Shown one piece after another: positions 3,582 through 21,501 of a stretch of DNA of 64,000 nt. The stretch is taken from the sequence record OQ743992; one strand, given 5' to 3'. The stretch's first letter is position 1, and each line of letters opens with the position of its first letter. This DNA comes from Escherichia phage vB_EfeM_pEP20. Under the pieces are notes generated by a model, which ran no database searches, was not told where the DNA came from, and saw nothing but the letters and a program-made list of their open reading frames with translations. The translations under genes and the position numbers were made by a program.

Positions 3582-3587
3582 CCTAGT

Positions 3588-4252: not shown

Positions 4253-4979
4253 CCCCTTTTAACCAGCACTTCAGGTTATTAGCATCATAATTCAGTTTCG
4301 GGTATGAGGTTACATGGAACTGCTCACCATCATAGTAGACAATATCTGCAATCCATAGTCCGTTCTCTTTACAGAAATCTTTATCTGCTTTAGAGGTAAT
4401 TGGATTAACTTCTACAAAACCATCTACACCCAAATCCTTTAAGCTACATACAATACCTTTGCAGATAACGCATGTATCAGATACTACCACAAAAAGTTCT
4501 TGGCTTTCAAGTTCTACAATGTATTCACCAAGTTGAACTTTAGGGAGATTTGATTGCTTCATAATCTTCCCATCGGCTGCACGGGCAATCGCATACCACT
4601 CTTTACCATCAACTACTGACATTCTGATGATACACTCTTGACCAGTACGCTTCTCAATATCTGCAAGACGTTTTAAAGCTTCTTCATAGTCGTCTGTGTA
4701 CTTCAGGTCATTATTATGGCAAACAGCTTCCATAGCACCATTGTGGTCATGTTGTGACAGATAAATTAGACCGTCAAGAACATATTGCAAATCTGCCTGA
4801 GCATCCAGTGTCTCAATGGGGTCTTTCTCTTCAATTGCTTTTACAAGCTCTTTTGCTTCTTCAAGCATACACAGAGACTGGGATTTCAAAGATTCCCAAT
4901 ACTCATCACTGTAAGGTTGCTTTTGGGTGTTTCCGCAACGAAGATTCCAGTTTTTTACTGATTCTCTTGAGTTAAACAT
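4224..4979 (-). CDS. hypothetical protein with glutaredoxin/NrdH-like CxxC C-terminal region
   Basis: 251 aa; C-terminal VVVSDTCVICKGIVCSLKDLGVDGFVEV resembles a redoxin CxxC module; sits in the RNR neighbourhood. Confidence 0.45.
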   Translation of the reverse strand: MFNSRESVKNWNLRCGNTQKQPYSDEYWESLKSQSLCMLEEAKELVKAIEEKDPIETLDAQADLQYVLDGLIYLSQHDHNGAMEAVCHNNDLKYTDDYEEALKRLADIEKRTGQECIIRMSVVDGKEWYAIARAADGKIMKQSNLPKVQLGEYIVELESQELFVVVSDTCVICKGIVCSLKDLGVDGFVEVNPITSKADKDFCKENGLWIADIVYYDGEQFHVTSYPKLNYDANNLKCWLKGVGYNGFTEH

Positions 4980-5217
4980 TCGGACTCCTTAAAAATCTAT
5001 TAACTTTTAGCTCTCGTGTTTCAATATATTCCAGATGCTCACGTAACTCTTGACGTTTAAGCATTAGGTGCTGCATTTGAGATTCAACAGCTTCAACTTC
5101 TTTAATTATTGACTCTCTGGCATTTGCAAGAATGCGCTCAAGTTCTTCAATCTTGCTGTCAACCTTTGCTACATGGCTCACAGCTTTACTTTTGTTAAAC
5201 ATTTTATTCTCTCTCAA
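4972..5217 (-). CDS. hypothetical coiled-coil protein (81 aa)
   Basis: Track ORF rich in E/L/R/K heptad-like sequence. Confidence 0.45.
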   Translation of the reverse strand: MRENKMFNKSKAVSHVAKVDSKIEELERILANARESIIKEVEAVESQMQHLMLKRQELREHLEYIETRELKVNRFLRSPNV

Positions 5218-5223
5218 TAGTTA

Positions 5224-5721
5224 TCAAGCACAGTTTGATTTCATTACCTTATGGATTCTTTTTTCAGCATCTTCATAAGTTTCTTTAGTAATAAACTTAA
5301 TTGCTGCAATATTGGCATTGTAGAAGAGTCTGAGCTTAGAGTCAATCCTTTTTGTCATGACATCGAATTTATGTTGAAGGTTTGCTTCGCCATAAACTAG
5401 ACCACCTTTCGTGTAGTAGGTTTGGATAATGTAAAAGTCAAAAAATTCTTTTCCAAAGCTCTCAATATCCTTTTTAATATACTCAGAAGAAGTCTCATAA
5501 GTCATCCAATCACTCTCCTTAGTGACTACCTTCTTCCGAGTCTTACCAGCAACTTTTCTTTTGGTCACACTATTAAGCTGTTTCTTTCCGATATAATATT
5601 GTCCGGTTTTCTTACAGTGTACTAAATAGACAAAGCCAAAATGTTTAGTGGGGTCAACTTCCCCACATAAAGATACCCAATGACCATAGGTAGGACAATT
5701 GCCAAATCCTTTAATCTTCAT
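5224..5721 (-). CDS. putative GIY-YIG family endonuclease (free-standing homing-endonuclease-like)
   Basis: N-terminal FGFVYLVHCKKTGQYYIGKK fits the GIY-(10-11 aa)-YIG pattern, followed by a basic region. Confidence 0.5.
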   Translation of the reverse strand: MKIKGFGNCPTYGHWVSLCGEVDPTKHFGFVYLVHCKKTGQYYIGKKQLNSVTKRKVAGKTRKKVVTKESDWMTYETSSEYIKKDIESFGKEFFDFYIIQTYYTKGGLVYGEANLQHKFDVMTKRIDSKLRLFYNANIAAIKFITKETYEDAEKRIHKVMKSNCA

Positions 5722-6751
5722 TCATACACGGCTCCCAATTATATTTCTTAAAAGAGAAATTATCTTTTGGATTTCTCTCTTGATATGCTATCCAGAAATG
5801 CTGCTCCATTAACTCTAATGGTGTCTTTGTGATAGTCTGTCCATCCCATGATACATAGGTGTATGACTCTTTTTTAGCATAGAGTTCATAGATAGCATCA
5901 AGGCACTCTTTATAGGTCTCTTTACCATCTAAAGCATTCATCACAGCTACTTTACCAGCACCTTTAAGGCCGAAGTAGTTATCTGCATTATCCCCAGCAA
6001 CAGCCTGATAACACAAGAATTTAAAACCTACACCAACTGTTTTTGCAGCTTTTGGTTTTGATTTGATAGGACAATCCCAGATATCTCCAACATTATTGTC
6101 AGCAATAAAAATTAGTGGTGACTTCTCATAGGTCATATCAATACAATAAGTCCCTTCAGCTTGTCGAAGGTCTTTGTCAATACTCATAAGAGCAGCCTTC
6201 TTACCCATCTTTTCAGCTTTAGCAATTACGATGGAGTCGGCTTCGAAGCCTCCCTTTAAGAGCTTGAACTCTGGTCTTGACAGAAGATATTCACGACAAG
6301 CAACTAAGTGTGTTGGTGTGACAGCATCTTTACGGTTACCTTGATATTGGTGCTCAAGACCTTTCACGTCTTTATGTTTATGTACACCTTTCTCTGTTAA
6401 GTAACCTACCCAAGTTCTTTCTTTACCAACAACCTTAAGCCATTCCTGAAGAACCTGCTGAGTAGCCATGATAGCTTCTTTTTCACTCTTAGCTTCTTTC
6501 CAAGTCTGTCTTTCCCATTCATCTTCATCAAATGCTAGGCCAAGCTCTTCTACAAGGATTCTCTGGTCTGCTAACCATCTTGCAGCATCTTTTGCATTAT
6601 CAAATGGTTCAGATTCTTCTGCTGTGAGTTTATTGACATATTTATATTTTGCTTTCTCAACTACACAAGCACCTTTATAGGCAATACTATCAGAGTCAAT
6701 AAAGACATGTGTAACTGAATCGGGAAGTTTTGTTAGCGTATACTTCTCCAT
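5711..6751 (-). CDS. 5'-3' exonuclease / flap endonuclease (FEN family)
   Basis: 346 aa with acidic N-terminal cluster (HVFIDSDS) and H3TH-like CYQAVAGDNADNYFGLKGAGKVAVMNAL, as remembered for phage T5 D15-type exonuclease. Confidence 0.75.
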   Translation of the reverse strand: MEKYTLTKLPDSVTHVFIDSDSIAYKGACVVEKAKYKYVNKLTAEESEPFDNAKDAARWLADQRILVEELGLAFDEDEWERQTWKEAKSEKEAIMATQQVLQEWLKVVGKERTWVGYLTEKGVHKHKDVKGLEHQYQGNRKDAVTPTHLVACREYLLSRPEFKLLKGGFEADSIVIAKAEKMGKKAALMSIDKDLRQAEGTYCIDMTYEKSPLIFIADNNVGDIWDCPIKSKPKAAKTVGVGFKFLCYQAVAGDNADNYFGLKGAGKVAVMNALDGKETYKECLDAIYELYAKKESYTYVSWDGQTITKTPLELMEQHFWIAYQERNPKDNFSFKKYNWEPCMNED

Positions 6752-6813
6752 TGTGACTCTCCATATGAAAAAGCCCCATACTAAGTACAGGGCTTTAAAG
6801 TAACTTTTAGAGA

Positions 6814-7671
6814 TTAGTCTTCTGTATCGAAGTCTTCATCTCCTTCGTCATCTGGGTCTGGCAAGTCTTCGTCGTCACCATCATCAGAATCATTCGAAGG
6901 TTTGTGGTCTTTTGCGTCTTCTTCAGTGATTTCACCGTTATCTTCAACACCATCAAGACCAAGCATAGCCAGTTCGTCTTCATCCAGTTCAGGTTCGCCA
7001 TTAGCACCGTTACCACCAGTGTAAGGTACAAGGGTATCAATGATAAACTGTTCCTGAATAGGTTTTGTCAGAACATTGTTCTCAAAGGTGTAGAAGTGAG
7101 TAGAAAGAATCACACTACCAAAAGAACCATTACCAACTGCAATATCTGGATGAATTACATCATAGTTCTTGTCATCTTCATGCTTATCAGATGCTTGAGC
7201 TTTGATTTTCTTCATCGGCTGTTTAACAGCTACACGCTTACCATTTACTTCTTCAATCAGCATTACAGGGAATGACTGTTTAGCTGTCCACACAGCACCA
7301 TCTTTATAAGCTGCTGCACGACTTACTTTCAAGATGTAGTAAGTGTCTGCTTCAAAAGGTGGTTTGCAACCAAACTTCTCTTCGAAGTCATCTGCATCAA
7401 CTGCTTCAGTAGTAACTTTATCCCAACCTTCTGGGTTTTTCTTAGACTTAGTGAACTCTTTAAACAGCTTGTTACCATCTTCTGCCAGAATTGAAACACT
7501 ATAGTTGCAGTCTTTTCCTGGGAATTTCTTATCAATGGATTTACCTTTTCCCGGACGTGGTGAAGTGTTCAGGTAATAAAACCAAACATCTTTCAGCAGG
7601 TAACGCAGAGTTTGACGTTCAGTACCATTGTACTTCTCTACCGGAGCTTTCATTTTAACAACTTTAGACAT
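6814..7671 (-). CDS. single-stranded DNA-binding protein (putative)
   Basis: 285 aa ending in a strongly acidic tail (DDGDDEDLPDPDDEGDEDFDTED), the hallmark of phage/bacterial SSB C-termini; located among replication genes. Confidence 0.6.
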   Translation of the reverse strand: MSKVVKMKAPVEKYNGTERQTLRYLLKDVWFYYLNTSPRPGKGKSIDKKFPGKDCNYSVSILAEDGNKLFKEFTKSKKNPEGWDKVTTEAVDADDFEEKFGCKPPFEADTYYILKVSRAAAYKDGAVWTAKQSFPVMLIEEVNGKRVAVKQPMKKIKAQASDKHEDDKNYDVIHPDIAVGNGSFGSVILSTHFYTFENNVLTKPIQEQFIIDTLVPYTGGNGANGEPELDEDELAMLGLDGVEDNGEITEEDAKDHKPSNDSDDGDDEDLPDPDDEGDEDFDTED

Positions 7672-7743
7672 TATTTAAACCTCTATCTCAATTTATGAAG
7701 AGTACCAATTCTAATTTGTTGATACTCTATTGTCAAACATTAA

Positions 7744-7893
7744 TTACTGGAAGTTGTGCTTATCTTTAGAAGCTGCTTTACGTGCAGTTTTTCCAGTTCT
7801 TACACGCTTCTCTTCATAGTATTTTGCTGGTTTTCCAGCAGTGGCTTTTAAGGAATCCCCAAAAACTTTTTCAAATGCTTTAGAGTGTTTCAT
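7744..7893 (-). CDS. small basic hypothetical protein (49 aa)
   Basis: Hand-found ORF (MKHSKAFEKVFGDSLKATAGKPAKYYEEKRVRTGKTARKAASKDKHNFQ) below the track cut-off; start overlaps the next gene. Confidence 0.3.
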   Translation of the reverse strand: MKHSKAFEKVFGDSLKATAGKPAKYYEEKRVRTGKTARKAASKDKHNFQ

Positions 7894-8183
7894 GATATTC
7901 TCCGATATACTTGATATTCAAACACATTTTCTTTAATTATAAACAGCCAACCAATATTATGTCGAGGTATAGTAATAGTGACTGTTATTATACTGTGATG
8001 GAACTTTTCTTCTACCTCAACGCCTCCATCACATTTCATGTAGAGCATTCTATAGAACCTATCAACCTTTGTCAAACACTCTTCCTGAAATTCATTTAAA
8101 CTTTTTTCTTCAAAGAAGGGTATGAACCCCTCTCTTTTATAACTATCACTCAGTTTCGAATGGGCAGTCATCTGCATCCTCAC
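7890..8183 (-). CDS. hypothetical protein (97 aa)
   Basis: Track ORF. Confidence 0.4.
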   Translation of the reverse strand: MRMQMTAHSKLSDSYKREGFIPFFEEKSLNEFQEECLTKVDRFYRMLYMKCDGGVEVEEKFHHSIITVTITIPRHNIGWLFIIKENVFEYQVYRRIS

Positions 8184-10137
8184 TTAATACAGGTGGAATC
8201 GTTGAGCTTTGACGCTGCTCTTCAGTATAAACTTCACCAGTCTCACGGTCAAACACTTCATCCTCGTAATGAGGTAAGGAGTCATCATAATGGTCTTCAG
8301 CTTCACCAATACCAAACTGTTGACGAATATTCTCTGCTGCACCATCAATGTCAACACCACACCCAGAAGCTTTGATAAGACGTCCTGTGTCTGGATTGTA
8401 CCAAGTATGACCAGCGATACCTGTTGACTTACCATGACGACGACACTTAGTTAACTTGATTTTTGTCAAGTTTTTCTTAACAGGGTCTGGGTCAACCTTG
8501 TTACGCATTAACAGAATGTTGTTCATGGAAATCTGGAAGTATGCACCAGAACCCTTAATGTCCTCTTCAGAGATATCTCCACCTTCAGAGTTAGCTTTCT
8601 GACCACCTGCACTCTTACGAACGTGACAGACGTTAACCTGTGCATACTGATAGCGTTTGCAACGACGCAGTAGTTCAGACAAAACTTCCTCTTCATCAGT
8701 ATCAGAACGTGACAGAGCCAACGTAATAGGGTCAAGAATAATAATCTTACAGTCTAAACTGTTAACAAGATAGTCAACAAATTCCAGCAGGTTATCTTGG
8801 TCAATTGCCCCTTGATGGTCAACGATATGGATACGACGGCCTTTAGATAGTTCTGCGTGTGCTTCCTTCAATTCATCCCAATCACGTTCGTCATAAGGAA
8901 TCTCAGAAATCTGCTTGCTTAGGTGAATTGCACAGAGCATCTCCATCAACTCTTCATAGGTGTCTTCTACAGGAATTACACCGATATTGTAATCAGTTTC
9001 TTTCCAAGCTGAATAAATCATCTCACGAGTGTAAGCTGACTTACCTACTGAAGATGGTGCTGCAATAGTTGTAATCTCACCTAAACCATAACCACCATAA
9101 GTCAGCCTGTTCAAATCCCCGAAAGATTCTGGGAAAGGAATCAATGGAATCTGACCACGATTCTTCATTGCCTCAAAACCATCTGCAAAGTTCTTGATAC
9201 CAGCAGGACAGTAACGAGGTGCATTGTAGATACGCTGCTTAAATCCTTCCAGAACTGTGTCTTTCTCTTTATAGAACTTTGTCCACCATTCATTAAGGTC
9301 TTTTACACCTTCTGGATACTGGAACAAACGAACCTTCTCAATAGGTAAGATGCCAGCAGCCTCTTTTGTTGCTTTAGCACCTGCTTCATCGTTATCAAAG
9401 CACAAGTAAATCTCATCAAATGATGTGATGTACTGATAGTTGTCTTTGATAGACTTAATGTTTGCACCTGATGGAACAGATACGTGACAGTAATTCTTAC
9501 GACGAGACTTATCTTTAATTGCCAGAGAAGTCATGTAGATAGCTGTCGCACATTCCATCTCACCTTCCCAGATGAATAGTCGGTTCCCACCTTCTGGAGC
9601 AATCCATGAACCGAACATTGCCAGTTCACCTTTAATATCTCCAACACCACCTGAAAAGTCTTTTAACTTACCACGTAGGTGTTCTTTTGGATGGTCTTCT
9701 GGGTAACGGTGACGAACACGGTAACCAACATGTTCTAGCTTGCCATCTTCATTACGTTTGTAAGTCGGATAGAAATGTGCATCAATTTCACCGTCACTAT
9801 CAATGTCAACCTTAATACCTAAACGCTCAAGGACTTTTGCAGGAATCTTCCTGTCTTTCAAATCCATTGCTTCTAGGTTTTCTTTTACATCATCTAAATC
9901 CATTCCACGGAAAGTACGGTTTTTATTATCTGAACCAGTAGAATAAGTGCTCACGATTTGTCCTTTATCAAAATCCCACTCTGGGAAACCTTTGTTACAG
10001 CTAAAGCAAGTCATCGAATAAGAACCATCGTCATGATGGTAGATTGAACCCGCATCTGATGAACCACAACGTGGACATGCACAATGACCAATAAACTGAC
10101 CAGCCTCTTTCAATTTACGACCTTTAGACATTAGCAC
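8146..10137 (-). CDS. DNA primase-helicase (zinc ribbon + primase + DnaB-like helicase)
   Basis: 663 aa; N-terminal CPRCGSSD...CFSCNKG zinc ribbon, central primase-like region, C-terminal P-loop (APSSVGKSAYT) in a DnaB/gp4-like helicase region. Confidence 0.8.
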   Translation of the reverse strand: MLMSKGRKLKEAGQFIGHCACPRCGSSDAGSIYHHDDGSYSMTCFSCNKGFPEWDFDKGQIVSTYSTGSDNKNRTFRGMDLDDVKENLEAMDLKDRKIPAKVLERLGIKVDIDSDGEIDAHFYPTYKRNEDGKLEHVGYRVRHRYPEDHPKEHLRGKLKDFSGGVGDIKGELAMFGSWIAPEGGNRLFIWEGEMECATAIYMTSLAIKDKSRRKNYCHVSVPSGANIKSIKDNYQYITSFDEIYLCFDNDEAGAKATKEAAGILPIEKVRLFQYPEGVKDLNEWWTKFYKEKDTVLEGFKQRIYNAPRYCPAGIKNFADGFEAMKNRGQIPLIPFPESFGDLNRLTYGGYGLGEITTIAAPSSVGKSAYTREMIYSAWKETDYNIGVIPVEDTYEELMEMLCAIHLSKQISEIPYDERDWDELKEAHAELSKGRRIHIVDHQGAIDQDNLLEFVDYLVNSLDCKIIILDPITLALSRSDTDEEEVLSELLRRCKRYQYAQVNVCHVRKSAGGQKANSEGGDISEEDIKGSGAYFQISMNNILLMRNKVDPDPVKKNLTKIKLTKCRRHGKSTGIAGHTWYNPDTGRLIKASGCGVDIDGAAENIRQQFGIGEAEDHYDDSLPHYEDEVFDRETGEVYTEEQRQSSTIPPVLSEDADDCPFETE

Positions 10138-10324
10138 CTCTTCGTTGCAGTTCTGCCTTCAATCCATTTTCAATCTTGTCCAGTTCATGAATCTCATCTG
10201 CAATCTCTTTCCTTCGTGATTCAACTCTCTTAAGACGTTCAATCATTACCTCATTGGAAAGAGATGAGAGTTCCACTAAACGATGGTCAATAACCTTAAA
10301 ATTATCTTTTACTCTCATCTTCAT
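10124..10324 (-). CDS. hypothetical protein (66 aa)
   Basis: Track ORF, coiled-coil-like. Confidence 0.4.
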   Translation of the reverse strand: MKMRVKDNFKVIDHRLVELSSLSNEVMIERLKRVESRRKEIADEIHELDKIENGLKAELQRRGANV

Positions 10325-10332
10325 TCTCTCTT

Positions 10333-11076
10333 TTAAATTTTCAGGATAGCTCTTAGCTTACTTTCAAGGTCTGCAAGAGTACCATTATTATGGATAATGT
10401 CACGCGCATATTTGGTAGAAATTCCATTTTCTGAAACATGTGATGAAACCTTGTCCACATTGTCTCTTTTTACTTCAATAGTCTGGTGTGCAAATCTACT
10501 CAGCCACTCAGCTTCAGAGTCAAACCTTAAGTCACTGATTAAAACAACACCCTCTTGATTCATAAGTGAACAAGATTCAAAGAAGCGAGCCATTCGTTTT
10601 TCAAGGTCTTTAGCCCAGAATTTGTCACCCATAACTTTACGGATAACTTCGGTGCCCCAAATCTGTTGAATCTGTCTTGATGAGAATTTATACTTTTTAC
10701 TAAATCCAAGACGTGTTAATATGGTAGGTTTAGCAACCTTCTTCAGTTCCATAATTAATCGTCCTGTTAACTCTGACATAAGTTTGAAGTCCGTATGGTA
10801 ACGTTCGCCTCTGAAGGTAAACTCCATAGCTTCTGTAACTTTGAACAGGAGTTCAGAGTATGATAAATCAAAAACCTGTGGAATCTCTTTAGTTTCACCG
10901 TACAGGTCATTCCAAGTCAGGTCAAATATCTTTGATGCAGAGAGTTTAAGATTATCTGCATAGGCCATCACTTCAACATTGTAGCCGTACTCATCCTCTA
11001 AGATGTTCTTCACAATAGAACATGAAGTGTCTTTTCCAGAACGTGCCTTTCCAGTAAATGCAATAATATTACTCAT
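10333..11076 (-). CDS. deoxynucleoside monophosphate kinase (T4 gp1-like, putative)
   Basis: 247 aa; P-loop FTGKARSGKDT at N-terminus and overall layout resembling phage dNMP kinases (recalled). Confidence 0.65.
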   Translation of the reverse strand: MSNIIAFTGKARSGKDTSCSIVKNILEDEYGYNVEVMAYADNLKLSASKIFDLTWNDLYGETKEIPQVFDLSYSELLFKVTEAMEFTFRGERYHTDFKLMSELTGRLIMELKKVAKPTILTRLGFSKKYKFSSRQIQQIWGTEVIRKVMGDKFWAKDLEKRMARFFESCSLMNQEGVVLISDLRFDSEAEWLSRFAHQTIEVKRDNVDKVSSHVSENGISTKYARDIIHNNGTLADLESKLRAILKI

Positions 11077-11095
11077 TCTATCTCCCTTAATTACT

Positions 11096-11120
11096 AAAAA
11101 GCCCCCAACTAAGGAGGCTT
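11096..11120 (-). terminator. rho-independent terminator candidate (minus strand)
   Basis: Imperfect hairpin GCCCCC-AACTAA-GGAGGC, followed on the minus strand by TTTTT. Confidence 0.35.
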
Positions 11121-11137
11121 GTAAGATTTATAAAGAC

Positions 11138-11950
11138 TTAGTGCAGTTGGTCACTAGTAATCTGTGATTGCTCTTTTTCAGCCATAGCTGAGACTTGCTT
11201 CACAAAATCGTCACCAAAGTTAATGCGCAGTTTTTCTTCAATGATTGAAGCGCCAATGTTTACCAAAACATCATTGATTGCTTGCATACTGACACCACCA
11301 GTCATCTCCTCAACGAACTCAATGGTTACCCCCAACATCTGAGAAAGTTGGATTAGTGCAACGATATTCATCATTGTAGAGATAGCTGGAATCATCAGAG
11401 CAACCTTCACCTGTAGCGGTTCTACATCAGCTACAGAGTCATCTTTCACAGCTTCTGCTAAAGAGTCTTTAGTTTGCTGGATAATCTCTTTGATTCGTGG
11501 GTTTAACTCTTCTACACCCCAATCAAGTTTTTCATATCGTGACAGCTTCTCTTCCATTCGCTTCTCAAGAGCAGCCATAACAGCACTTGTTGACGAAATT
11601 AACAGGTCAACTAGCTCATCATAACCTAAGAGCAGTAGTGAGTCTTTTTCTTCAGAGGTCATGGCAATATAGTCATTTTTCTGCATCTCATAGAAAATGA
11701 ACTCTGCAAGAGCATCAACACCTACAACGATAGATGCTAAAGCAAGTGTTTTATCACACAGCATCATATTAACCTGTTCTGCAAAAGCACCGTTATCAGA
11801 CTTGTCTTTAGGCAAGTTATAGCTTGCAGGCATAAACTGTTCTGTGTAGTTGTTTCCACGAAGAATCATAGCCATGCTTTCTACGGCATTGATTAAGAAT
11901 GCTTCGCCAATACCTTTTTCTTCAAGCATCTGGTCTACAGTAGTGTTCAT
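11138..11950 (-). CDS. hypothetical protein (270 aa)
   Basis: Track ORF. Confidence 0.5.
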   Translation of the reverse strand: MNTTVDQMLEEKGIGEAFLINAVESMAMILRGNNYTEQFMPASYNLPKDKSDNGAFAEQVNMMLCDKTLALASIVVGVDALAEFIFYEMQKNDYIAMTSEEKDSLLLLGYDELVDLLISSTSAVMAALEKRMEEKLSRYEKLDWGVEELNPRIKEIIQQTKDSLAEAVKDDSVADVEPLQVKVALMIPAISTMMNIVALIQLSQMLGVTIEFVEEMTGGVSMQAINDVLVNIGASIIEEKLRINFGDDFVKQVSAMAEKEQSQITSDQLH

Positions 11951-11951
11951 A

Positions 11952-12374
11952 TTATTTCTCTCTCAGTTGGTTAAGTTTCTTTCTAGAACATTTTAAGTTT
12001 TCGGATGAAGAAAAGTCAAGTGTCTTTTCAGAACGTGGATAGTAATGTCTATCCCAAGAAGTTTCAACATCATTAATCAGTGACGCTAGATTACACAGGT
12101 CTGTACCACTTTGCAACCTCTTTTTAAGAGAATCTAGTAAAGCAACCGTGTCTTTAGCTTTACGTCTAGCTGTAGCAACATCTTTCATATGCTCAAATAC
12201 AGAGCATTTTAAGTCATCTTCGTAGTCTTCAGACAACTCTATTTCATGTTGTATATCAACCATTCTCCTGTGATGGTGAGCATATTCCCGTTGAGCAGCA
12301 ATGTCAAGTTCTTCCAACTTCTGCAAAGCCCTAACAAAGTCAGCTATGTCTGGGTGAACAAACATTTTCTGCAT
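11952..12374 (-). CDS. hypothetical protein (140 aa)
   Basis: Track ORF; first gene of the leftward block. Confidence 0.5.
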   Translation of the reverse strand: MQKMFVHPDIADFVRALQKLEELDIAAQREYAHHHRRMVDIQHEIELSEDYEDDLKCSVFEHMKDVATARRKAKDTVALLDSLKKRLQSGTDLCNLASLINDVETSWDRHYYPRSEKTLDFSSSENLKCSRKKLNQLREK

Positions 12375-12550
12375 GTAAGCCTCTTTTAAGTAACTATTAA
12401 GTTTTAATCTTTTATCTTAACGTATTCTATACGTTATACTTTAAAGCTTTTTAAAAGCTATTAAATAATCTTTTAAGAGTTTTAAAGTATCTGTATAGTT
12501 AAACTGTTAAGTAACCTTTTAAGTAAAAACCCACTTCGCAAAGATTAACA

Positions 12551-12572
12551 CCTTGTCAAGTACATTGTCAAC
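12551..12572. promoter_or_regulatory. conserved 22-mer CCTTGTCAAGTACATTGTCAAC (first copy) in divergent intergenic region upstream of DNA polymerase
   Basis: Tandem TTGTCAA half-sites 12 bp apart; TATAAT at 12581-12586. Confidence 0.45.
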
Positions 12573-12631
12573 TTGCTTTTTATAATTTTTTGCAGTAATG
12601 TATGAGGTTAATGATTTTAGAGGGAGTAAAA

Positions 12632-14815
12632 ATGGAAAACGTAGATTTTAAAAACTTACATTTAGTTGGTGATACAGAAACTGATGGTTTACTCCTTGAG
12701 TTCACTAAAGTACACGTAATGGCTTTCGCAGACTATAAATCTGACGATGAAGAGCCACCTGTATGGGTCTTTACAGATGAGCCTATCCTCGGTCACAAGT
12801 ATACCAAGTACATTAAGGGTGGTTTGCGTGAAGGTGTTGAGTTTGCGTTAAAGGCAAAACGGCTTTGCATCCATAATGGTCTGGGTTATGACTGGTGGGT
12901 TTTCAATCACATTGCACCTGATTTATGGAACTTTGATAATCCAAAGTGTAAGCCGTGGAGTAATTTCTTTCAGGATTCTCTTATCCAGTCTCGTGTTCAG
13001 TGGATGGATAGACCAACTCCAAAAGGCTATAAAGGTGCTCATGGCTTGGCAGCGTGGGGTGCTCGTGTTGGTGTTCGTAAACCAGAGATTGAACATTGGG
13101 GTGTGTGGAATGCAGAAATCTTCACTCGTGTTGTAGAAGATATCCGTATTAACGCCAAAACTAAACGTGCACTGGATAATGAATATCTCAAACTTAAGAA
13201 GTGTGGTATAGACACTTATGAAACCTATATGAGAGCTAAAGAAACATCTTTCTGGATGAGTCAACAAGCTATCAATGGTTGGAAAGCTGATAAAGAGCTT
13301 ATGGAGTTCCATGTAAAGGAACTTGACAAGTTGACTAATGAGCTTGCTTCAGAAGTTGAACCACATCTTCCTCCAACTATTAAGACCAAAGGTAAAGTCA
13401 CTGGAGAAGAGTTTGCAAAAGCTTGGAATGAATATGTTGAAACATTCGGTCATGCAGATGGACTGAAGAGAATTACAAAGTACCCTAAGACGAAGTATCG
13501 CCAACAGGTACGTAACGGTGAGATGCAGACATACGAAATCAAGCCATTTGGGAAGCCAACTACAAAGATTTTTAACATTGAAAAGCGGAATTGCTATACA
13601 CCAACCAACTCCGTAACTGGTGAAGAGTACAAGGAAGGTTTTGTAGCAATGAAGGATGCTCGTGCAATTTGCAATGAGTTGAATGCAAAGATTGGTAAGA
13701 AGTGCAAAGACTGGAAGCCAGTAAAAACAGTTAAAACTGTGAAGTACTATAACAGCCATGTTGTTAACCACTTTGAACTTGAGTCAAGTCGCTACACAGG
13801 TTTGATTGATGCACCATATACACCAATTGAGTTCGAAGTTTCTCGTATGACTCAGGTAGCAGTTGTTAAAGACTACTTGAAATCAGTTGGTTGGATTCCA
13901 GATGACTGGAACTACAAGAAAGACTCAGATGGTCGTCCTGTTAAGGTTTGTCGCTTCAAAGACAACAAAAAGATGATTACAAAACATCCTAAGTGGGATG
14001 AGATGGTGGAACGGTGTGGTTTGAGTTATGTTGAACACGAAGGTGTCCAGTACATTGAACATAACTGGTCTGTTAAGAAGTACACAGATTTGCTTGAGCC
14101 TTGCTTAATCCGTACTTCACCAAAACTTACTGAATCATCTTATGACACGATTGAAGGTGAGCTTGGACAGAAGATTGCGAAATACTATACTTTGATGCAC
14201 CGACGTAGAACTATTGAGAACTCAAAAGATGATGAAAAAGGTTGGTTGAACCAGATTCGTCCTGATGGTCGCCTTAGTGCTGGTGCAATGGTGTTTGGTA
14301 CTTCAACTGGACGTATGACACAATATGGTATTGTAAACGTGCCGTCTGGTGCTGCTGTCTATGGAGCACCTATGAGGGAGGTCTGGACTTGTGAAGAAGG
14401 TACTAATATTGTTTCAGCCGACATGAATAGCGCCCAACTTGTGCTACTGTGTAACTTTATGGGCGATAAAGATTTCACTAAAGCGGTGACAGAGGGTAAA
14501 GAAGAGGTTGAATTTGTCAAACAAGAGGATGGTAGATACTATTGCAAACATTTTGACCAGTATCTAAACCCAGCTATTGACAAGTATTTACATTATGATT
14601 CTGAAAATGACTTATACGTGGTGTACTCAGGGACTGATGCACACACTTTGAATAGTATCTACTTCAGTCTTAATAAAGAGGAAGACATCTTGACATGTCG
14701 AGCTACTCAGGATACAAGTCTTCTTCAAGAAATTAGTAAAGGTCGTAAGAAAGCCAAAAATGGCATCTATGCGTCAGTGGCGCATGTAAAACGTTGTGAA
14801 TTGCTGGAAGCCTAA
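12632..14815 (+). CDS. DNA polymerase (family A), N-terminal segment: 3'-5' exonuclease domain and polymerase domain up to the O-helix
   Basis: ATG at 12632 preceded by AGGGAG. Exo motifs (LVGDTETDGL, HNGLGYDWW). Ends in RKKAKNGIYA, the first half of the PolA O-helix; the reading frame then runs into a stop. Confidence 0.8.
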   Translation: MENVDFKNLHLVGDTETDGLLLEFTKVHVMAFADYKSDDEEPPVWVFTDEPILGHKYTKYIKGGLREGVEFALKAKRLCIHNGLGYDWWVFNHIAPDLWNFDNPKCKPWSNFFQDSLIQSRVQWMDRPTPKGYKGAHGLAAWGARVGVRKPEIEHWGVWNAEIFTRVVEDIRINAKTKRALDNEYLKLKKCGIDTYETYMRAKETSFWMSQQAINGWKADKELMEFHVKELDKLTNELASEVEPHLPPTIKTKGKVTGEEFAKAWNEYVETFGHADGLKRITKYPKTKYRQQVRNGEMQTYEIKPFGKPTTKIFNIEKRNCYTPTNSVTGEEYKEGFVAMKDARAICNELNAKIGKKCKDWKPVKTVKTVKYYNSHVVNHFELESSRYTGLIDAPYTPIEFEVSRMTQVAVVKDYLKSVGWIPDDWNYKKDSDGRPVKVCRFKDNKKMITKHPKWDEMVERCGLSYVEHEGVQYIEHNWSVKKYTDLLEPCLIRTSPKLTESSYDTIEGELGQKIAKYYTLMHRRRTIENSKDDEKGWLNQIRPDGRLSAGAMVFGTSTGRMTQYGIVNVPSGAAVYGAPMREVWTCEEGTNIVSADMNSAQLVLLCNFMGDKDFTKAVTEGKEEVEFVKQEDGRYYCKHFDQYLNPAIDKYLHYDSENDLYVVYSGTDAHTLNSIYFSLNKEEDILTCRATQDTSLLQEISKGRKKAKNGIYASVAHVKRCELLEA

Positions 14816-15575
14816 GTCTGTAAAGATATGGTAATCAGCAGCGAAGTCTCTGTTAGGACTCCTAAAACAAAGGAGAGAGACAATGGCAGGTTACGAAGAG
14901 AGATTATGCACTGAGTGTGGTACGGAGTTTAAACCATATCAATACAATCAGAAACGGTGCAGAAGTTGTGTATTAAAGTTTGACAGAAGGGCAGAACACA
15001 GGGTTCTTACTAAGAAATGCCCTAGTTGTGAGAAGGTGTTCATGCCGAGAACAGCAAGGCAAGTTTATTGTTCGTCACATTGCGGTGAGAAAGGTAGAGT
15101 TAAGAATTACTACCTAAGAACATATGGATTGGAAAGAGGAGAGGTTGAGGCTCTACTCCGTGACTGTGATTACAAATGTCAAATTTGTGGCGGTGAAGGT
15201 TTTATCATGAATGGTTCACGACACAAGGCTAAACTTGTTGTTGACCATGACCATAAAACCGGAAAGGTAAGAGGTATGTTATGCCACAATTGCAACAGAG
15301 CTTTGGGGTTGCTTGCAGATAGTGTTGATAACATGCAAAGAGCAATTGACTATCTAAGCAAATGATATAACTATAGAGATTCCTAACAGAGAAACGTTCA
15401 GAGACTATCGAAAAGCATACTTAACGTATGAACTGAGTAGAGTAGGGTGGTAAGCTAATGACCATTCCCAAGTGCAACGGTAGTATTACTACTACGTGAT
15501 ATAGTCCGACACTCCGTAGAAATGCGGAGAAGTTCATAAGAGAACTGGTACACCTTGCGAGTGTATTGACCAGAT
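14774..15575 (+). mobile_element. intervening sequence in the DNA polymerase gene carrying an HNH endonuclease ORF; probable self-splicing group I intron (boundaries approximate)
   Basis: O-helix is split: exon 1 ends ...KNGIYA, exon 2 resumes VLFGAGDEKFAK. The second part has no RBS or ATG. The inserted ORF has its own RBS. Confidence 0.55.
14883..15365 (+). CDS. HNH homing endonuclease
   Basis: 160 aa; cysteine-rich N-terminus and the HNH core VVDHDHKTGKVRGMLCHNCNRALG; RBS AAAGGAGAGAGA upstream. Confidence 0.8.
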   Translation: MAGYEERLCTECGTEFKPYQYNQKRCRSCVLKFDRRAEHRVLTKKCPSCEKVFMPRTARQVYCSSHCGEKGRVKNYYLRTYGLERGEVEALLRDCDYKCQICGGEGFIMNGSRHKAKLVVDHDHKTGKVRGMLCHNCNRALGLLADSVDNMQRAIDYLSK

Positions 15576-16133
15576 GTATTGTTCGGTGCAGGTGATGAGA
15601 AGTTTGCTAAGACGATTAAAGCATCTACAACTGAGGAAGGTGCTTTAACTAAGCAAACATACTTTGTACGTCTCCCTAAAATTAAGAAGCTGCTGGATAA
15701 TTTAGAAGCAGACTTCAAAGCCACTAAGAAGGCTCTTGAAGAGGTATTTGGTAAGACTGCCGCAATCTCTAAAGGGGGTTTTGTAAAGGTTGCTGGAGCT
15801 TGGTTGTGGTGTAAATCTCCACATAAGTTATTGAATTATTTGCTTATGGGTTCTGAAAGTCAGGTTCAGAATGAAGCCATCAACCTTGCTTGTAGAAGAA
15901 CTTGTGAAGAGGGTCTTACAAAGTTGAATGGTCGAAAACCAGCTATTGGCGCTAGATTGCTTTTAGCATATCACGATGAGAATAGTTGGGAGTGCCCAGA
16001 AGACATGACGCAGGATGTTAAAGCAGTAATTGACTGGATGTATGGTCAAGCGTCAAGAAATTTAGGGCTTAAGAAAGAAACGCTTGTTACGGGCACTGGT
16101 AAGGTTGGTAAAAGCTGGCTTGAAGTACACTAA
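15576..16133 (+). CDS. DNA polymerase (family A), C-terminal segment (second half of O-helix to motif C)
   Basis: Frame opens after a stop at 15567-15569 with VLFGAGDEKFAKTI and includes the motif C-like LLAYHDE; the track start at 15579 is a non-ATG codon. Confidence 0.75.
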   Translation, partial: VLFGAGDEKFAKTIKASTTEEGALTKQTYFVRLPKIKKLLDNLEADFKATKKALEEVFGKTAAISKGGFVKVAGAWLWCKSPHKLLNYLLMGSESQVQNEAINLACRRTCEEGLTKLNGRKPAIGARLLLAYHDENSWECPEDMTQDVKAVIDWMYGQASRNLGLKKETLVTGTGKVGKSWLEVH

Positions 16134-16194
16134 TTAGTATTGACAAGGTGCTCATGGAAGAGTACCTTATACAATATCTTGTATAGGAGGACAT

Positions 16195-16413
16195 ATGACA
16201 CTTTCAGAGATTGAAGTTCAGTTGCAATGTGCAGGTTATTCTCAAAAAGAGATTGAAGGGATGTTTATTGTTCTTTGCAGTAGCTGTAGGAATTTGAAGG
16301 TAAACCCTGAAGTTCTACGTAGAGTAGATATCTTTATTGCTGGAGGTAAAATCGCAAAAGATAAGACAGGCTACTTAAAAGGTGAGCGTGTAAATATTGA
16401 GAGTTTACTATGA
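16195..16413 (+). CDS. hypothetical small protein (72 aa), paralog of 16616-16828
   Basis: RBS AGGAGG then ATG; shares the C-terminal GKIAKDKTGYLKGERVNIE motif with the downstream paralog. Confidence 0.5.
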   Translation: MTLSEIEVQLQCAGYSQKEIEGMFIVLCSSCRNLKVNPEVLRRVDIFIAGGKIAKDKTGYLKGERVNIESLL

Positions 16414-16619
16414 GCCACCGTGGAAGAACCCATGCAGCAATGATGAAAGGTGCTTCAAAGGAAACTATCAAGAACCGTAAGCAGAAGTTGTTTGAGAGAA
16501 TGAACAGGCTAATTGACAATTCATCTCTTTCAGGTTCTGAGAAGGTTTTCTTGAAAGGTAATCTGAAAAGCATTGCACAAGAACTTATTGATATTGAATA
16601 TTGGAGACATCAAAAATGA
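16410..16619 (+). CDS. hypothetical protein (69 aa)
   Basis: Track ORF with ATGA overlap to the upstream gene. Confidence 0.45.
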   Translation: MSHRGRTHAAMMKGASKETIKNRKQKLFERMNRLIDNSSLSGSEKVFLKGNLKSIAQELIDIEYWRHQK

Positions 16620-16828
16620 CACTTGCAGACGTTATTCAGCAACTTCACGATAATTGCTACACTCCAGAGTTGATTCAAGAGATGCTTATTGTGGTGATGC
16701 CTAGTAAGTTCGTAAAAGGTTTTAATAGTGAATCTTTAAAGTCTGCGCATATCCTTATTGTTGACGGTAAGATTGCAAGAGACCGCACAGGAGTCCTTAA
16801 GGGTGAACGTATCAGTATTGACCTCTGA
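16616..16828 (+). CDS. hypothetical small protein (70 aa), paralog of 16195-16413
   Basis: ATG at 16616 after GGAGA; C-terminus GKIARDRTGVLKGERISID matches the paralog. Confidence 0.5.
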   Translation: MTLADVIQQLHDNCYTPELIQEMLIVVMPSKFVKGFNSESLKSAHILIVDGKIARDRTGVLKGERISIDL

Positions 16829-16845
16829 GTATTGGGAACACCAAA

Positions 16846-17001
16846 ATGAAACGCAAAGTAAAATTATTTAGTTTATATGGGAGAGTCGGTAAAGGTTTTG
16901 ATTGGCAACTGCTACGCTCAGATGTTAAAAGCAACGAATTAGCACAACTCATCATAAACTACCGGCGTACATACAGAGAAGTAGAACATCGTGAACAATA
17001 A
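16846..17001 (+). CDS. small basic hypothetical protein (51 aa)
   Basis: Hand-found ORF MKRKVKLFSLYGRVGKGF... below the track cut-off. Confidence 0.3.
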   Translation: MKRKVKLFSLYGRVGKGFDWQLLRSDVKSNELAQLIINYRRTYREVEHREQ

Positions 17002-17016
17002 AACAGGAGATGTGTT

Positions 17017-17253
17017 ATGTGGAAAGCAGTAATTACACTTGGTGTTATTTTTCTAACTGGCTGCAACCCTTCTTATGAAGATAAGAATGCTTCTTATAGC
17101 CTCCCACCAGAAATGCAAGATTGTAAGGTCTATAAGTTACATGGTGATGCCATAAGCAGAGATATTGTTGTTGTCAGATGTCCAAACTCTCAAACAACAA
17201 CATCTTATAGCTATGGCAAAAATGGTCAATCACACACTACTGTTATTGAGTGA
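17017..17253 (+). CDS. putative lipoprotein (78 aa)
   Basis: Signal peptide with lipobox (VIFLTGC); RBS AGGAGA upstream. Confidence 0.5.
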   Translation: MWKAVITLGVIFLTGCNPSYEDKNASYSLPPEMQDCKVYKLHGDAISRDIVVVRCPNSQTTTSYSYGKNGQSHTTVIE

Positions 17254-17263
17254 GGTTTTCAAG

Positions 17264-17470
17264 ATGGAAGTCCTAGTAAACTATATCTATTGTTATGATG
17301 TTGTTCACTCCACTACAACCGTAGCTCAACGTAATCCAATCGTCCCACGAGAAGGTGAGTTGGTTCGCATCGAGGGTTGGACTTACACTGTGGGAAGCAT
17401 CATTCATAAGTTTGATGTTGCTGGTGATGTTCAAGTTATCGACGTAGAGATTGGTGGTAAGAGAAAATGA
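17264..17470 (+). CDS. hypothetical protein (68 aa)
   Basis: ATG at 17264 chosen over the overlapping longer track ORF (17165). Confidence 0.45.
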   Translation: MEVLVNYIYCYDVVHSTTTVAQRNPIVPREGELVRIEGWTYTVGSIIHKFDVAGDVQVIDVEIGGKRK

Positions 17471-17658
17471 ACAAAGAAGACAAGCATAAAAATGCTGTAC
17501 GAACTCCTGATGGAAAGGTTCAATCCTTCATCCTGACAGTTGGTGGAAAGCCGTTTCGTTGCCACTGCGGAGCAAACTGTTTTCATAAACCAGATAAAAA
17601 TGACTTAGAGCTTTACGCATGTAATGCTTGCAATACTTGGTATCACTCAGAGGAATAA
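17467..17658 (+). CDS. hypothetical cysteine-rich (zinc-finger-like) protein
   Basis: 63 aa with CHCGANC...CNAC cysteine pairs. Confidence 0.45.
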   Translation: MNKEDKHKNAVRTPDGKVQSFILTVGGKPFRCHCGANCFHKPDKNDLELYACNACNTWYHSEE

Positions 17659-17659
17659 A

Positions 17660-18763
17660 ATGACAATACTGTACAAACAAAATAAAGACGGCTCTTTTAA
17701 CGTCTGGTCATGCGTTGCTGTAGGTGACAAAGTTATTACAACCTACGGTAAAGAAAATGGCAAGATGATGTTTGAAGAGTACACAGTAGAACCGAAAAAC
17801 ATCGGTAAAAAGAATGAGCGTAACGCTGAACAGCAAGCTCTCTTTGAAGTTGCTGCTAAGTATAAAAAGCAAGTTGACCGCAAAGGCTATGCTTACACAA
17901 AAGAGTCTGCACAGAATACTGAGAAGGTAGGTGTGCAGCTTGCTCATGATGCTGCAAAGGTTAGTCATGCAAAGTATTTGAAATTCCCTGCTGATGCTCA
18001 ACCGAAGCTTGATGGTGTCCGTTGTAGGATTTCGAGGCACTTAAGCATTGGTAGTGTATTTACAGCATACTCTCGTGAGAATACTGTTTATAAAATCCCT
18101 ACTGAACTAATACCTGACATTATGGCAATGTTAAGGCTCCACAAAGATGTTGATGAATTTGATGGAGAGATTTATGCTCATGGGTGGGACTTAGAAGATA
18201 TCGTCTCCATGATTAAAAATGAAGACAATCCTGACAGACACTTGCTCAAGTTTTACTGGTACGATATCTGTGACAGTACTAAGACGTGGCCTGAGCGTAG
18301 AGATATTATTGAGACTTCACCACTGAATGACTTTAGAGACGGCTGTAAAGTTGTTCCTGTTAAGTCTCGTCGTGTAAATTCTTGGGAAGAGTTTGATGAA
18401 GCTCATGATAAGTGGGTTGAAGCCAAGTTTGAAGGTGCAATGTACCGTTCAATCTCTGAAGACTCCTTCTATGAGTGTTGTCACCGTTCATACTTCTTGA
18501 TTAAGCACAAGAAGATGCACACTGAAGAGTTTAAAGTGACTGGTGTAAAGACTGATAAGCGTGGTCATGGCAAGTTCGTTGTAGAGACTCTTCCTAACGT
18601 CTTTGTAGATGTCTCATGGAAGACTACTCATGAGAAGAAACAGTATCTTGCTGAACATCCTGAAGAGTTTATCGGGAAACCTTTGACGGTTCAGTTCCAG
18701 AAGATGACTCGTAAAGGTTCTTTACAGTTCCCTGTTGGCCTCGTTATACGAGATTATGAATAA
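17660..18763 (+). CDS. ATP-dependent DNA ligase (putative)
   Basis: ATG at 17660 after GAGGAA; contains KLDGVR, matching the ligase adenylation motif KxDGxR; about 367 aa like small phage ligases. Confidence 0.65.
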   Translation: MTILYKQNKDGSFNVWSCVAVGDKVITTYGKENGKMMFEEYTVEPKNIGKKNERNAEQQALFEVAAKYKKQVDRKGYAYTKESAQNTEKVGVQLAHDAAKVSHAKYLKFPADAQPKLDGVRCRISRHLSIGSVFTAYSRENTVYKIPTELIPDIMAMLRLHKDVDEFDGEIYAHGWDLEDIVSMIKNEDNPDRHLLKFYWYDICDSTKTWPERRDIIETSPLNDFRDGCKVVPVKSRRVNSWEEFDEAHDKWVEAKFEGAMYRSISEDSFYECCHRSYFLIKHKKMHTEEFKVTGVKTDKRGHGKFVVETLPNVFVDVSWKTTHEKKQYLAEHPEEFIGKPLTVQFQKMTRKGSLQFPVGLVIRDYE

Positions 18764-18769
18764 AAGTTG

Positions 18770-18797
18770 TTGACATAGAAAATTTGGTGAGTATACT
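18770..18797 (+). promoter_or_regulatory. sigma70-like promoter candidate
   Basis: TTGACA (18770-18775), 16-nt spacer, TATACT (18792-18797), just downstream of the ligase stop. Confidence 0.45.
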
Positions 18798-18839
18798 GAG
18801 CAGCATAAACCAACTGGTACTCACCAGCATCACTTAAGA

Positions 18840-19140
18840 ATCTTTAAGAGGGGTTTTTAAGTGAGGTATGGTAAGGCGCGGTGAGGTCAGGTAATGTGAT
18901 GTTTGGTTTGGTGCGGTGATGTGCTGTCCGGTAATGTCCGGTGCGGTAAGGTATGGGTAGTTAGTCTCAGCTACATTAAAATGAAACTTACCTTTTTAAA
19001 AGGTCTTTAAGAGGGTTTTTTAATAAGGTCTGGTGTAGTAGGGTTGGGCATGGTATAGTCCGGTGTGGTGTGGCACGGTATGGGTGGATGGTAGTAGCCA
19101 CGTTAAAAATCTACCAAGTTTCTAAAGAGTCTTCTGTTGA
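18840..19140. repeat. GGT-periodic repeat block R1 with conserved flanking modules
   Basis: About 300 bp non-coding with GG spaced every 6-8 nt and conserved modules (AAGGTCTTTAAGAGGGTTTTT header, GGTATGGGTAGTTAGTCTCAGCTACATTAAAATGA tail) shared with R2. Confidence 0.6.
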
Positions 19141-19173
19141 GGGTTCTTTACAAACAACTTAACAATCAACTAA

Positions 19174-19779
<606 letters not shown>

Positions 19780-19781
19780 TT

Positions 19782-20222
19782 ATGAATACAAAAGCATTAG
19801 CAGCAAAGTTTAGTTACGGTGACACTGTATCACATTCTGAGATGGACACCTTCTTAGGTATTGTGAAGCCAACTTATCAAGGCGACATTGTTAAGTACGA
19901 AGATGAAATGAAGGCTTATGCACTTACACGTCTAAACCGACTTGAGAAGTTTATTGAGAAGCTTCTTAAAGAAGAGAAGATTTATCTGGTTGCTTCAATG
20001 GGTGTTGGTTATCGTGTGGTTGAACCTAAACATCAAGCAACTATTGCAAAACGTAAAATGTCTGGTAAGATTGGTCGAGCTTTAAAGCAAGCCACTCAAG
20101 CTATTGAGAATGTGAACACTATGGAACTTAGCCATCAAGAACGCTCACGACTGATTGAACAGCAAAACCACTTAGCTGCTATGAAAGCTAACATTAACAA
20201 GCAACGTAGAAAACCTTTCTAA
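19782..20222 (+). CDS. hypothetical protein (146 aa)
   Basis: Track ORF 3 nt after the upstream stop. Confidence 0.5.
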   Translation: MNTKALAAKFSYGDTVSHSEMDTFLGIVKPTYQGDIVKYEDEMKAYALTRLNRLEKFIEKLLKEEKIYLVASMGVGYRVVEPKHQATIAKRKMSGKIGRALKQATQAIENVNTMELSHQERSRLIEQQNHLAAMKANINKQRRKPF

Positions 20223-20230
20223 GTTGACTA

Positions 20231-20257
20231 GGTAGCCTCTTCGGAGGCTCCTTTTTA
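20231..20257 (+). terminator. rho-independent terminator
   Basis: Hairpin AGCCTC-TTCG-GAGGCT followed by CTTTTT. Confidence 0.6.
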
Positions 20258-20259
20258 AA

Positions 20260-20520
20260 AGGTCTTTAAACAGGGTCTTTTAATAAGGTGCGGTGCTGTC
20301 CTGTTCTGTAGTGTCTGGTAAGACCTAGTAATGTTCGGTCAGGTATGGGTAGTTAGTCTCAGCTACATTAAAATGAGACTTACATCACTTAAGAGTCTTT
20401 TAAGAGGGTTTTTAAGTGAGGTGTGGCACGGTAATGTTAGGTAGGGTCAGGTCAGGTCAGGTGAGGTAAGGTAAGGTAATGTATGGAAGGATGGCAGTAG
20501 CCTTATAAAAAATCTGCCAA
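20260..20520. repeat. GGT-periodic repeat block R2 (second copy of the R1 module family)
   Basis: Same headers and tails as R1 in swapped order, with GGTCAGGTCAGGTCAGGTGAGGTAAGGTAAGGTAATG. Confidence 0.6.
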
Positions 20521-20537
20521 ATAAGCTATAAAATCTG

Positions 20538-20566
20538 TTGACAAGTCAGGTGTTATAGCCTATTTT
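20538..20566 (+). promoter_or_regulatory. sigma70-like promoter candidate
   Basis: TTGACA (20538-20543), 17-nt spacer, TATTTT; precedes gene at 20611. Confidence 0.35.
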
Positions 20567-20610
20567 TATACTCAATGTAATACAAAATTTAATATAGCTT
20601 TGAGGTTATT

Positions 20611-20994: not shown

Positions 20995-20995
20995 T

Positions 20996-21500: not shown

Positions 21501-21501
21501 T

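Follow-up and report, generated by a model that had tools for sequence, protein, structure and literature searches.

A repeated 22-mer in the divergent intergenic regions of a Felix O1-like phage as a likely part of leftward host-type promoters with an invariant second TTGACA

Introduction

Strong sigma-70 promoters that combine an UP element with an extended -10 include rrnB P1 of Escherichia coli and the early promoters of T-even and T5-type phages. Direct repeats are a feature of other phage promoters, where those of lambda CII and P22 C1 straddle the -35 of PRE; CII promoters have a poor -35 and a poor -10, and the repeats keep a fixed 10-nt period. The motif at the CII and C1 sites is TTGC-N6-TTGC (PMC4837284). 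A different role for promoter-like hexamers is described for phage 82 PR', where, according to the passage of PMC3326312 that cites Perdue & Roberts 2010, a -35-like element of this late promoter of a lambdoid phage acts through sigma-70 region 4 to add an early pause at +14/+15.

Phages of the Felix O1 type are widely used in Salmonella typing and biocontrol, and how they start and time transcription was stated to be an open matter in the genome paper (PMC3185647). That paper describes four transcription units in a genome without a phage RNA polymerase and without known specificity modifiers (Whichard et al. 2010, PMC3185647), and it leaves open the problem of reading through many terminators (PMC3185647). 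The RT-PCR available for Felix O1 gives timing only (PMC3185647). Among the promoters predicted by Whichard et al. (2010, PMC3185647) is P41, given as TTGACA-N15-TATAGG at 21515–21541 of Felix O1, and a comparable sequence was not found by those authors in the region between genes 96 and 97 (PMC3185647).

The window analyzed here is a stretch of 64,000 nt from Escherichia phage vB_EfeM_pEP20 (OQ743992). An initial annotation had drawn attention to a 22-mer with tandem TTGTCAA boxes, present in two near-identical copies, and had proposed it as a shared operator or phage-specific promoter. In what follows, the two TTGACA hexamers that these boxes form on the minus strand are called the distal box and the gene-proximal box, and the leftward promoters predicted around them are called P_L1 and P_L2.

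Results

The window comes from a Felixounavirus, a Felix O1-like myovirus, with 96% identity to Escherichia phage JH2 (genome size 87.7 kb) over 6 kb, and its layout matches the four transcription units of Felix O1 (Table 1). Two divergent intergenic regions, IG1 and IG2, have their Felix O1 equivalents between genes 96 and 97 and between genes 40 and 41, respectively. The two regions are paralogous over ~150–200 nt, and the 25-mer that contains the 22-mer is their best conserved segment. Identity of at least 99% for IG1 and IG2 is found in ~180 of the ~255 phage records, against mostly 90–95% for the flanking 6 kb. The existence of two copies that agree at 21 of 22 positions, and their location in the two divergent intergenic regions, were both confirmed, and two matches to the 22-mer occurred in 0/100 dinucleotide-preserving shuffles of the window. 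The lone heptamer TTGTCAA is not enriched (28 observed vs 21.7 expected in the window); enrichment is seen for the tandem arrangement.

In minus-strand letters, the block at 12548–12572 reads GTTGACAATGTACTTGACAAGGTGT and the 22-mer reads GTTGACAatgtacTTGACAagg, which holds two exact sigma-70 -35 hexamers, TTGACA, 12 nt apart. TTGNCAA is an odd-length palindrome, and the strand was therefore assigned from its central base together with flanking sequence and geometry. A search of the complete JH2 genome at fixed spacing returned the two known copies, and a search with a variable gap returned a third, more diverged copy, which had been missed at fixed spacing because the gap there is 7 nt. It should be noted that the record of Salmonella phage Si3 (NC_041922.1, 84,419 bp) is linearised at or next to the IG2 22-mer, at about 55497–55509 of the window. 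Alignment of Si3 with IG2 ends at query position 130 (window 55509), where the record also ends, and the record contains a second place; a break in the assembly at the repeated k-mer is the probable cause.

Table 1. Coordinates of the repeated sequence, transcription units, intergenic regions and predicted promoter elements (window positions unless stated otherwise)
Feature	Position	Strand or direction	Description
22-mer CCTTGTCAAGTACATTGTCAAC	12551–12572	+	Exact match
Second 22-mer copy	55509–55530	+	21/22, single mismatch A->T at position 14
25-nt identical block ACACCTTGTCAAGTAC[A/T]TTGTCAAC	12548–12572 and 55506–55530		Contains the 22-mer
Replication and nucleotide-metabolism unit	1–12374	leftward	
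DNA polymerase block	12632–24094	rightward	
DUF5681, 26 tRNAs, virion genes	24139–55379	leftward	
Fourth unit	55629 onward	rightward	
IG1	12375–12631		Between 140-aa gene (start 12374, -) and DNA polymerase (start 12632, +)
IG2	55380–55628		Between DUF5681 gene (start 55379, -) and small ORF (55629, +)
Distal box, predicted -35 of P_L1	12566–12571	-	Top-scoring IG1 site; invariant in 29/29; promoter in GenBank KR014248
A-tract AAAAA within AAAAAGCAAG, UP-element-like	12577–12581	-	5–10 nt upstream of the P_L1 distal box
Inter-hexamer spacer ATGTAC (minus letters), IG1	12560–12565	-	Most variable columns of the region
Gene-proximal box within predicted P_L1 spacer	12554–12559	-	About -24 to -19; invariant
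Predicted extended -10 TGtTAATCT of P_L1	12542–12550	-	TAATCT = 12547–12542; 18 nt from the distal box
Predicted IG1 leader, ~160 nt	12375–12536	-	Rich in CTTAAAAG, predicted structured; predicted start
Distal box, predicted -35 of P_L2	55524–55529	-	Equals -35 of Felix O1 P41; sequence and prior annotation
A-tract AAAAAA upstream of P_L2 distal box	55534–55539	-	Segment AAAAAAGTTG
Gene-proximal box within predicted P_L2 spacer	55512–55517	-	Invariant in 28/28
Predicted -10 TAGGCT of P_L2	55501–55506	-	17 nt from the distal box; TG directly adjacent to TA
Predicted IG2 leader, ~115 nt	55380–55494	-	Predicted start
Candidate DNA polymerase promoter TTGCTT (12573–12578)-N17-TAATGT (12596–12601)	12573–12601	+	Footprint
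Best IG2 rightward candidate TTGACT-N17-TACCAT	55555–55583	+	Invariant in orthologues
Third tandem-TTGACA promoter module	JH2 87259–87277 (L003 43259–43277)	-	Between gp131 and gp130
Eight TTGACA sites with A-rich upstream segment and TAnnnT	7736, 12571, 51976, 53401, 53493, 55529	-	
	18770, 20538	+	

Judged from its sequence and surroundings, the 22-mer is likely to be the -35 and most of the spacer of a leftward host sigma-70 promoter that heads each minus-strand unit. The best sigma-70-like site of each region is the distal box paired with TAATCT (N18, TG) in IG1 or with TAGGCT (N17) in IG2, each scoring 11.4 bits with an approximate position matrix based on published sigma-70 compilations, and both sites rank within the best 30 of ~128,000 window positions. 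Eight of the 69 TTGACA hexamers in the window have an A-rich upstream segment and a TAnnnT at N16–18, and all eight are non-coding and co-oriented with downstream genes or tRNAs. Both distal boxes are included and are therefore members of the host-type promoter family of this phage. The A-tracts, within AAAAAGCAAG in IG1 and AAAAAAGTTG in IG2, lie 4 nt upstream of the distal box, and each site thus combines a consensus -35, a TAnnnT at N17 or N18, a non-coding co-oriented location, an A-tract and a TG. The -10 hexamers TAATCT and TAGGCT match TATAAT at only 3/6 positions, and a consensus promoter scan omitted both leftward promoters because it needs at least 4/6 in the -10.

The proposed minus-strand architecture would consist of an UP-like A-tract, 4 nt, the distal box, a spacer of 17–18 nt, TG with TAnnnT, and a long, conserved leader rich in CTTAAAAG. 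RNA polymerase would start near 12535–12536 in IG1 and near 55494 in IG2, P_L1 would drive the replication and nucleotide-metabolism unit from 12374, and P_L2 would drive the unit of DUF5681, tRNA and virion genes from 55379. Transcription start sites or RNA-seq start-site data were not found in the literature on Felixounavirus, Felix O1, wV8 and phiEa21-4, and all start sites given here are therefore inferred positions. P_L1 and P_L2 would also be early promoters. The predicted leaders are long, and a length of ~115–160 nt counts against the promoter reading.

A phage-specific promoter, one of the two possibilities in the initial annotation, was rejected: the motif is the host -35 consensus, it occurs in only three copies per genome, and neither a phage RNA polymerase nor a phage sigma factor is annotated in the complete JH2 genome. 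What stands of that proposal is that the 22-mer is regulatory and most likely promoter DNA. The MotA-box and the sites of sigma-32, sigma-54, FNR, IHF, ArcA and PhoP were judged a poor fit in spacing or sequence.

Further consensus promoters occur at 53380–53511, 51960–51990 and 54960–55000, all on the minus strand and facing the tRNA cluster and the 471-aa DUF7788/DUF2828 gene. These sites read TTGACA-N17/18-TAAAGT, TAATAT and TATAGT, each with an A-tract, and the site at 53493 shares sequence with a hairpin that Whichard et al. (PMC3185647) give as Felix O1 terminator t42.

Phylogenetic footprints were drawn from 29 IG1 and 28 IG2 sequences of IMG/VR, which cover Felixounaviruses, Moogleviruses and Suspviruses. 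The distal and gene-proximal TTGACA are unchanged in all 57 sequences, and no columns in the region vary more than the 4–5 bases that separate the two (GTACA, GTGCA, GCGCA, GTGTA, GTGAT, GTTAT and others in plus-strand letters). The -10 of IG1 is TG[T/G]TA[A/G]TCT (TGgTAGTCT in orthologues), an extended -10 pattern in which the base between TG and TA varies and the TG itself is kept. The IG2 variants TAGGCT, TAGCCT, TAAGTT and TAGTGT leave only T-A-n-n-n-T and the preceding TG fixed. In the A-tract region upstream of the distal box, CTTGCTTTTT is invariant in the 29 IG1 sequences.

These footprints bear on a plus-strand reading, in which TTGTCA would serve as a -35 (as in rrnB P1) or as an activator site that replaces the -35 upstream of TATAAT at 12581. 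The natural variants CTGTCAA and ATGTCAA destroy the plus-strand hexamer, while the minus-strand TTGACA is never altered. TTGTCA does match 5/6 of the -35 consensus, TATAAT lies 9 nt past the second box, IG2 offers TTGTCA (55523)-N18-TGcAATAGT at 8.6 bits, and a strong plus-strand sigma-70 promoter is not evident in IG1 (best 7.0 bits). The spacers from the two TTGTCA hexamers to TATAAT are, however, 10 and 22 nt, and the original remark that this spacing does not fit a plus-strand sigma-70 promoter was right. TATAAT sits in the A/T-rich segment upstream of the distal box and is replaced outside Felixounavirus (TGAAGA, TGAAAC, TGTGTC and others in Moogle- and Suspviruses), where the boxes are invariant. 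Further, plus-strand elements are not equally far from the 22-mer in IG1 and in IG2, with a 5-nt indel and different best promoters, and for the best rightward promoter candidates the difference is ~24 nt. A separate, footprinted rightward promoter candidate, TTGCTT-N17-TAnnGT, also adjoins the 22-mer, and the plus-strand reading is considered very unlikely.

The units served by the 22-mer are most likely the leftward and not the plus-strand ones, as suggested by the same leftward geometry in IG1 and IG2. The view that the 22-mer heads the plus-strand polymerase block had to be given up, with geometry constant only relative to the leftward elements. From its own footprint, the DNA polymerase block probably has a promoter that adjoins P_L1: across 29 sequences its hexamers are kept (TAnnGT) and its spacer is variable, and the Zyzzx equivalent reads TTGCAA-N17-TACTAT. 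This candidate scores ~4.9 bits by hand calculation with an approximate matrix, under the listing threshold of 5.0. IG1 would then consist of back-to-back promoters with -35 hexamers 1 nt apart. The 22-mer lies at about -60 to -81 from the best rightward candidate of IG2.

The Pho box is CTGTCAT-N4-CTGTCAT with an 11-nt period. The direct repeats with TGTCA resemble it, and in IG1 they end ~10 nt before the -10-like TATAAT, as would suit a host response-regulator site of OmpR/PhoB type that ties the polymerase block to host physiology. The period here is 12 nt (10–13 nt in homologues) instead of 11, the TATAAT at 12581 lacks conservation, and the conserved hexamer is TTGACA on the other strand; a Pho box-like site is thus regarded as extremely improbable.

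The third copy lies ~300 nt past the right end of the window (position 64000) and reads AAAAAAGTG-TTGACA-atccctc-TTGACA-ttgg-TAACTT. In 18 Felixounavirus contigs its hexamers and a TAAnnT are fixed and the inter-hexamer bases are variable. This third predicted promoter is internal and not the head of a unit, and the start of its transcript, cgagggggtttatctaaaagg, is similar to the one in IG1, cgaagtgggtttttacttaaaagg. The intergenic DNA of Hafnia phage Zyzzx is no longer alignable with the window; both divergent regions of this phage carry the tandem TTGACA, with gaps of 4 and 5 nt and TATTGT or TACTCT 17 nt from the distal box. The arrangement is simpler in other relatives, in which IG1 holds a single minus-oriented TTGACA: the Kolesnikviruses SE5 and Panisse have TACATT 17 nt downstream of it and Pectobacterium phage Arno18 has TAGGCT at the same distance. 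IG2 of Yersinia phage P778 holds TTGACA-N17-TAAAGT and an inverted TTGACA that serves the opposite strand.

Across three paralogues and across genera, the gene-proximal box always lies within the promoter spacer in the same orientation. A promoter spacer is normally free to vary, and the footprint indicates strong purifying selection on the gene-proximal box. An invariant TTGACA in the spacer is not expected of a plain promoter and therefore points to something more. In five homologous promoters, no -10 partner (TAnnnT at N15–19) was found for the gene-proximal box, and two overlapping tandem promoters are ruled out on this ground. The distance from the distal box to the -10 is 17–18 nt in all five, while the gap between the boxes floats (4, 5, 6, 6 and 7 nt, or 10, 11, 12, 12 and 13 nt from start to start).

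The lack of a -10 partner means that the gene-proximal box needs another explanation, and one candidate is an operator, in which a phage or host protein would bind both TTGNCAA boxes to switch the divergent promoters, as the main reason for conservation. Invariant boxes with freely varying bases between them are a classic two-half-site footprint, a bound protein would occlude both back-to-back promoters of IG1, and the phage encodes an Xre-type HTH protein (HTH_3, 21201–21497), the example named in the initial annotation as a candidate binding protein. The variable distance between the boxes, set against the steady position of the -10, argues against a fixed dimer operator, whose half-sites would have to keep a set geometry. 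Xre proteins mostly recognise inverted repeats, and the central bases of both boxes keep the direct, -35-like orientation in 57/57 sequences. The second box of Arno18 and of P778 is inverted and has its own -10 on the other strand. The homologues detected for the HTH_3 protein were confined to Felixouna-, Moogle- and Suspviruses, with no match at E<=1e-3 in the box-bearing Zyzzx, a comparison in which the HTH_3 protein was the sole candidate screened and small proteins diverge fast. An operator as the main reason for conservation is judged unlikely, and it could coexist with the promoter if the protein targets the gene-proximal box to shut off early transcription.

A second explanation retains the leftward promoter and assigns the gene-proximal box a role after initiation. 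It is conceivable, at a low probability similar to that of the operator, that the doubled TTGACA marks a distinct class of Ounavirinae promoters in which the gene-proximal box would engage sigma-70 region 4 after 10–13 nt as a programmed promoter-proximal pause or tether. A GGGUUU(U) stretch is common to the initial transcripts of IG1 (in the window and in Zyzzx) and of the third copy, around the predicted pause position. If this reading is true, a factor might be loaded at the pause, or the conserved GGGUUUU or CUUAAAAG leader RNA might act on polymerase, and a possible purpose would be transcription through the many terminators of units of 30–35 kb. Alternatively, an early shut-off protein whose specificity is like that of sigma region 4 could target the gene-proximal box.

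The two leaders are predicted to fold better than shuffled controls (z of -2.4 for IG1 and -2.9 for IG2), and the only hits in an Rfam scan of the window were tRNAs, the intergenic regions matching none of the known RNA families. Comparison of four sequences showed that the IG1 leader hairpin ACGUAU-ucu-AUACGU (12421–12435) has compensatory changes in Mooglevirus (AUGUAU...AUACAU), and base pairing is predicted between a CUCUU segment and the Shine-Dalgarno AGAGG of the gene starting at 12374. The octamer CTTTTAAG / CTTAAAAG occurs 18 times in the window vs 5.4 expected, and no shuffle reached 18. Clusters of three copies each lie in IG1 (12375–12540) and IG2 (55385–55480), and others at 18828–19035 and 20253–20482. 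A leftward (A)CTTAAAAG(G/A) stands at a similar distance after the tandem-TTGACA promoter in both divergent regions of the window, in those of Zyzzx and in the third JH2 copy. It could serve to bind a protein or to build hairpins in the leader RNA.

The direct repeats at 18828–19035 and 20253–20482 (~100–200 nt, 71–82% identical) carry degenerate GGT-rich runs (GGTAAGGTCAGGT...) beside CTTTAAGAGGG motifs. They flank ORFs that are absent from JH2, and strong TTGACA promoter-like sites lie near them (18770, 20538). Additionally, the 11-mer TTGACAAGGTG, which is identical to the gene-proximal box and its flank, has a third occurrence at 16140–16150 on the plus strand, in the non-coding gap 16134–16194. 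There the TTGACA is a stand-alone -35 with TACCTT 17 nt downstream, and this is possibly a related promoter in which the box is single.

Discussion

As a promoter the site is ordinary, and part of it had been annotated earlier. Felix O1 P41 begins at the distal box of the IG2 copy, the GenBank records of vB_EcoM_AYO145A and ASO1B carry 'promoter' features over these sites, and those of Escherichia phage vB_EcoM_AYO145A map to window 12571–12542 and 55529–55495 on the minus strand. P41 and the AYO145A features are consensus matches only and cover the same DNA as P_L1 and P_L2; P41 pairs its -35 with a -10 in the N15 register, whereas the TAnnnT footprinted here is at N17. Nothing comparable was reported for the 96–97 region by Whichard et al., and the twin in IG1 was therefore overlooked in that paper. 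What is new relative to prior annotation is the duplicate 22/25-mer, the TTGACA in the spacer, the third copy and the cross-genus footprint.

The divergent control regions of these phages now have a concrete layout, with back-to-back host-type promoters as its predicted core, and the strand of the motif is corrected to minus, that is, leftward. IG1 and IG2 are at least as conserved as the surrounding genes. The invariance of a second -35 box at variable spacing, across genera, is a feature that ordinary promoter models do not predict. Should the gene-proximal box control pausing, shut-off or antitermination, it would provide a simple new handle on the temporal regulation of phages; should it control none of these, the finding is an ordinary promoter.

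Among described systems, the sites of lambda CII and P22 C1 share with this locus the short TTG-containing direct repeats at the -35 region of a phage promoter. Unlike those sites, the hexamers here are the sigma-70 consensus, the period varies, and a CII-like gene is not annotated. Phage 82 PR', as far as it is described in the passage cited above, differs in that a -10-like pause element, a Q-type antiterminator and a Q-binding site were not identified here. In the features given in that passage the likeness is nonetheless threefold: a phage promoter has a second -35-like hexamer further downstream than its true -35, the offset of 10–13 nt between the boxes approximates the travel of polymerase at a pause of the 82 PR' type, and the initial transcript continues into a stretch rich in A/T or U (GGGUUUUU in IG1). 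The A-tract, the consensus -35, the spacer of 17–18 nt, the TG-n-TAnnnT and the position at the head of a unit are shared with rrnB P1 and the T-even and T5-type early promoters, as is the recognition by unmodified host polymerase that is predicted here. Unlike that type, P_L1 and P_L2 have a -10 that matches at 3/6 positions, with a recurrent TAnnCT, and carry a second perfect -35 hexamer within the spacer.
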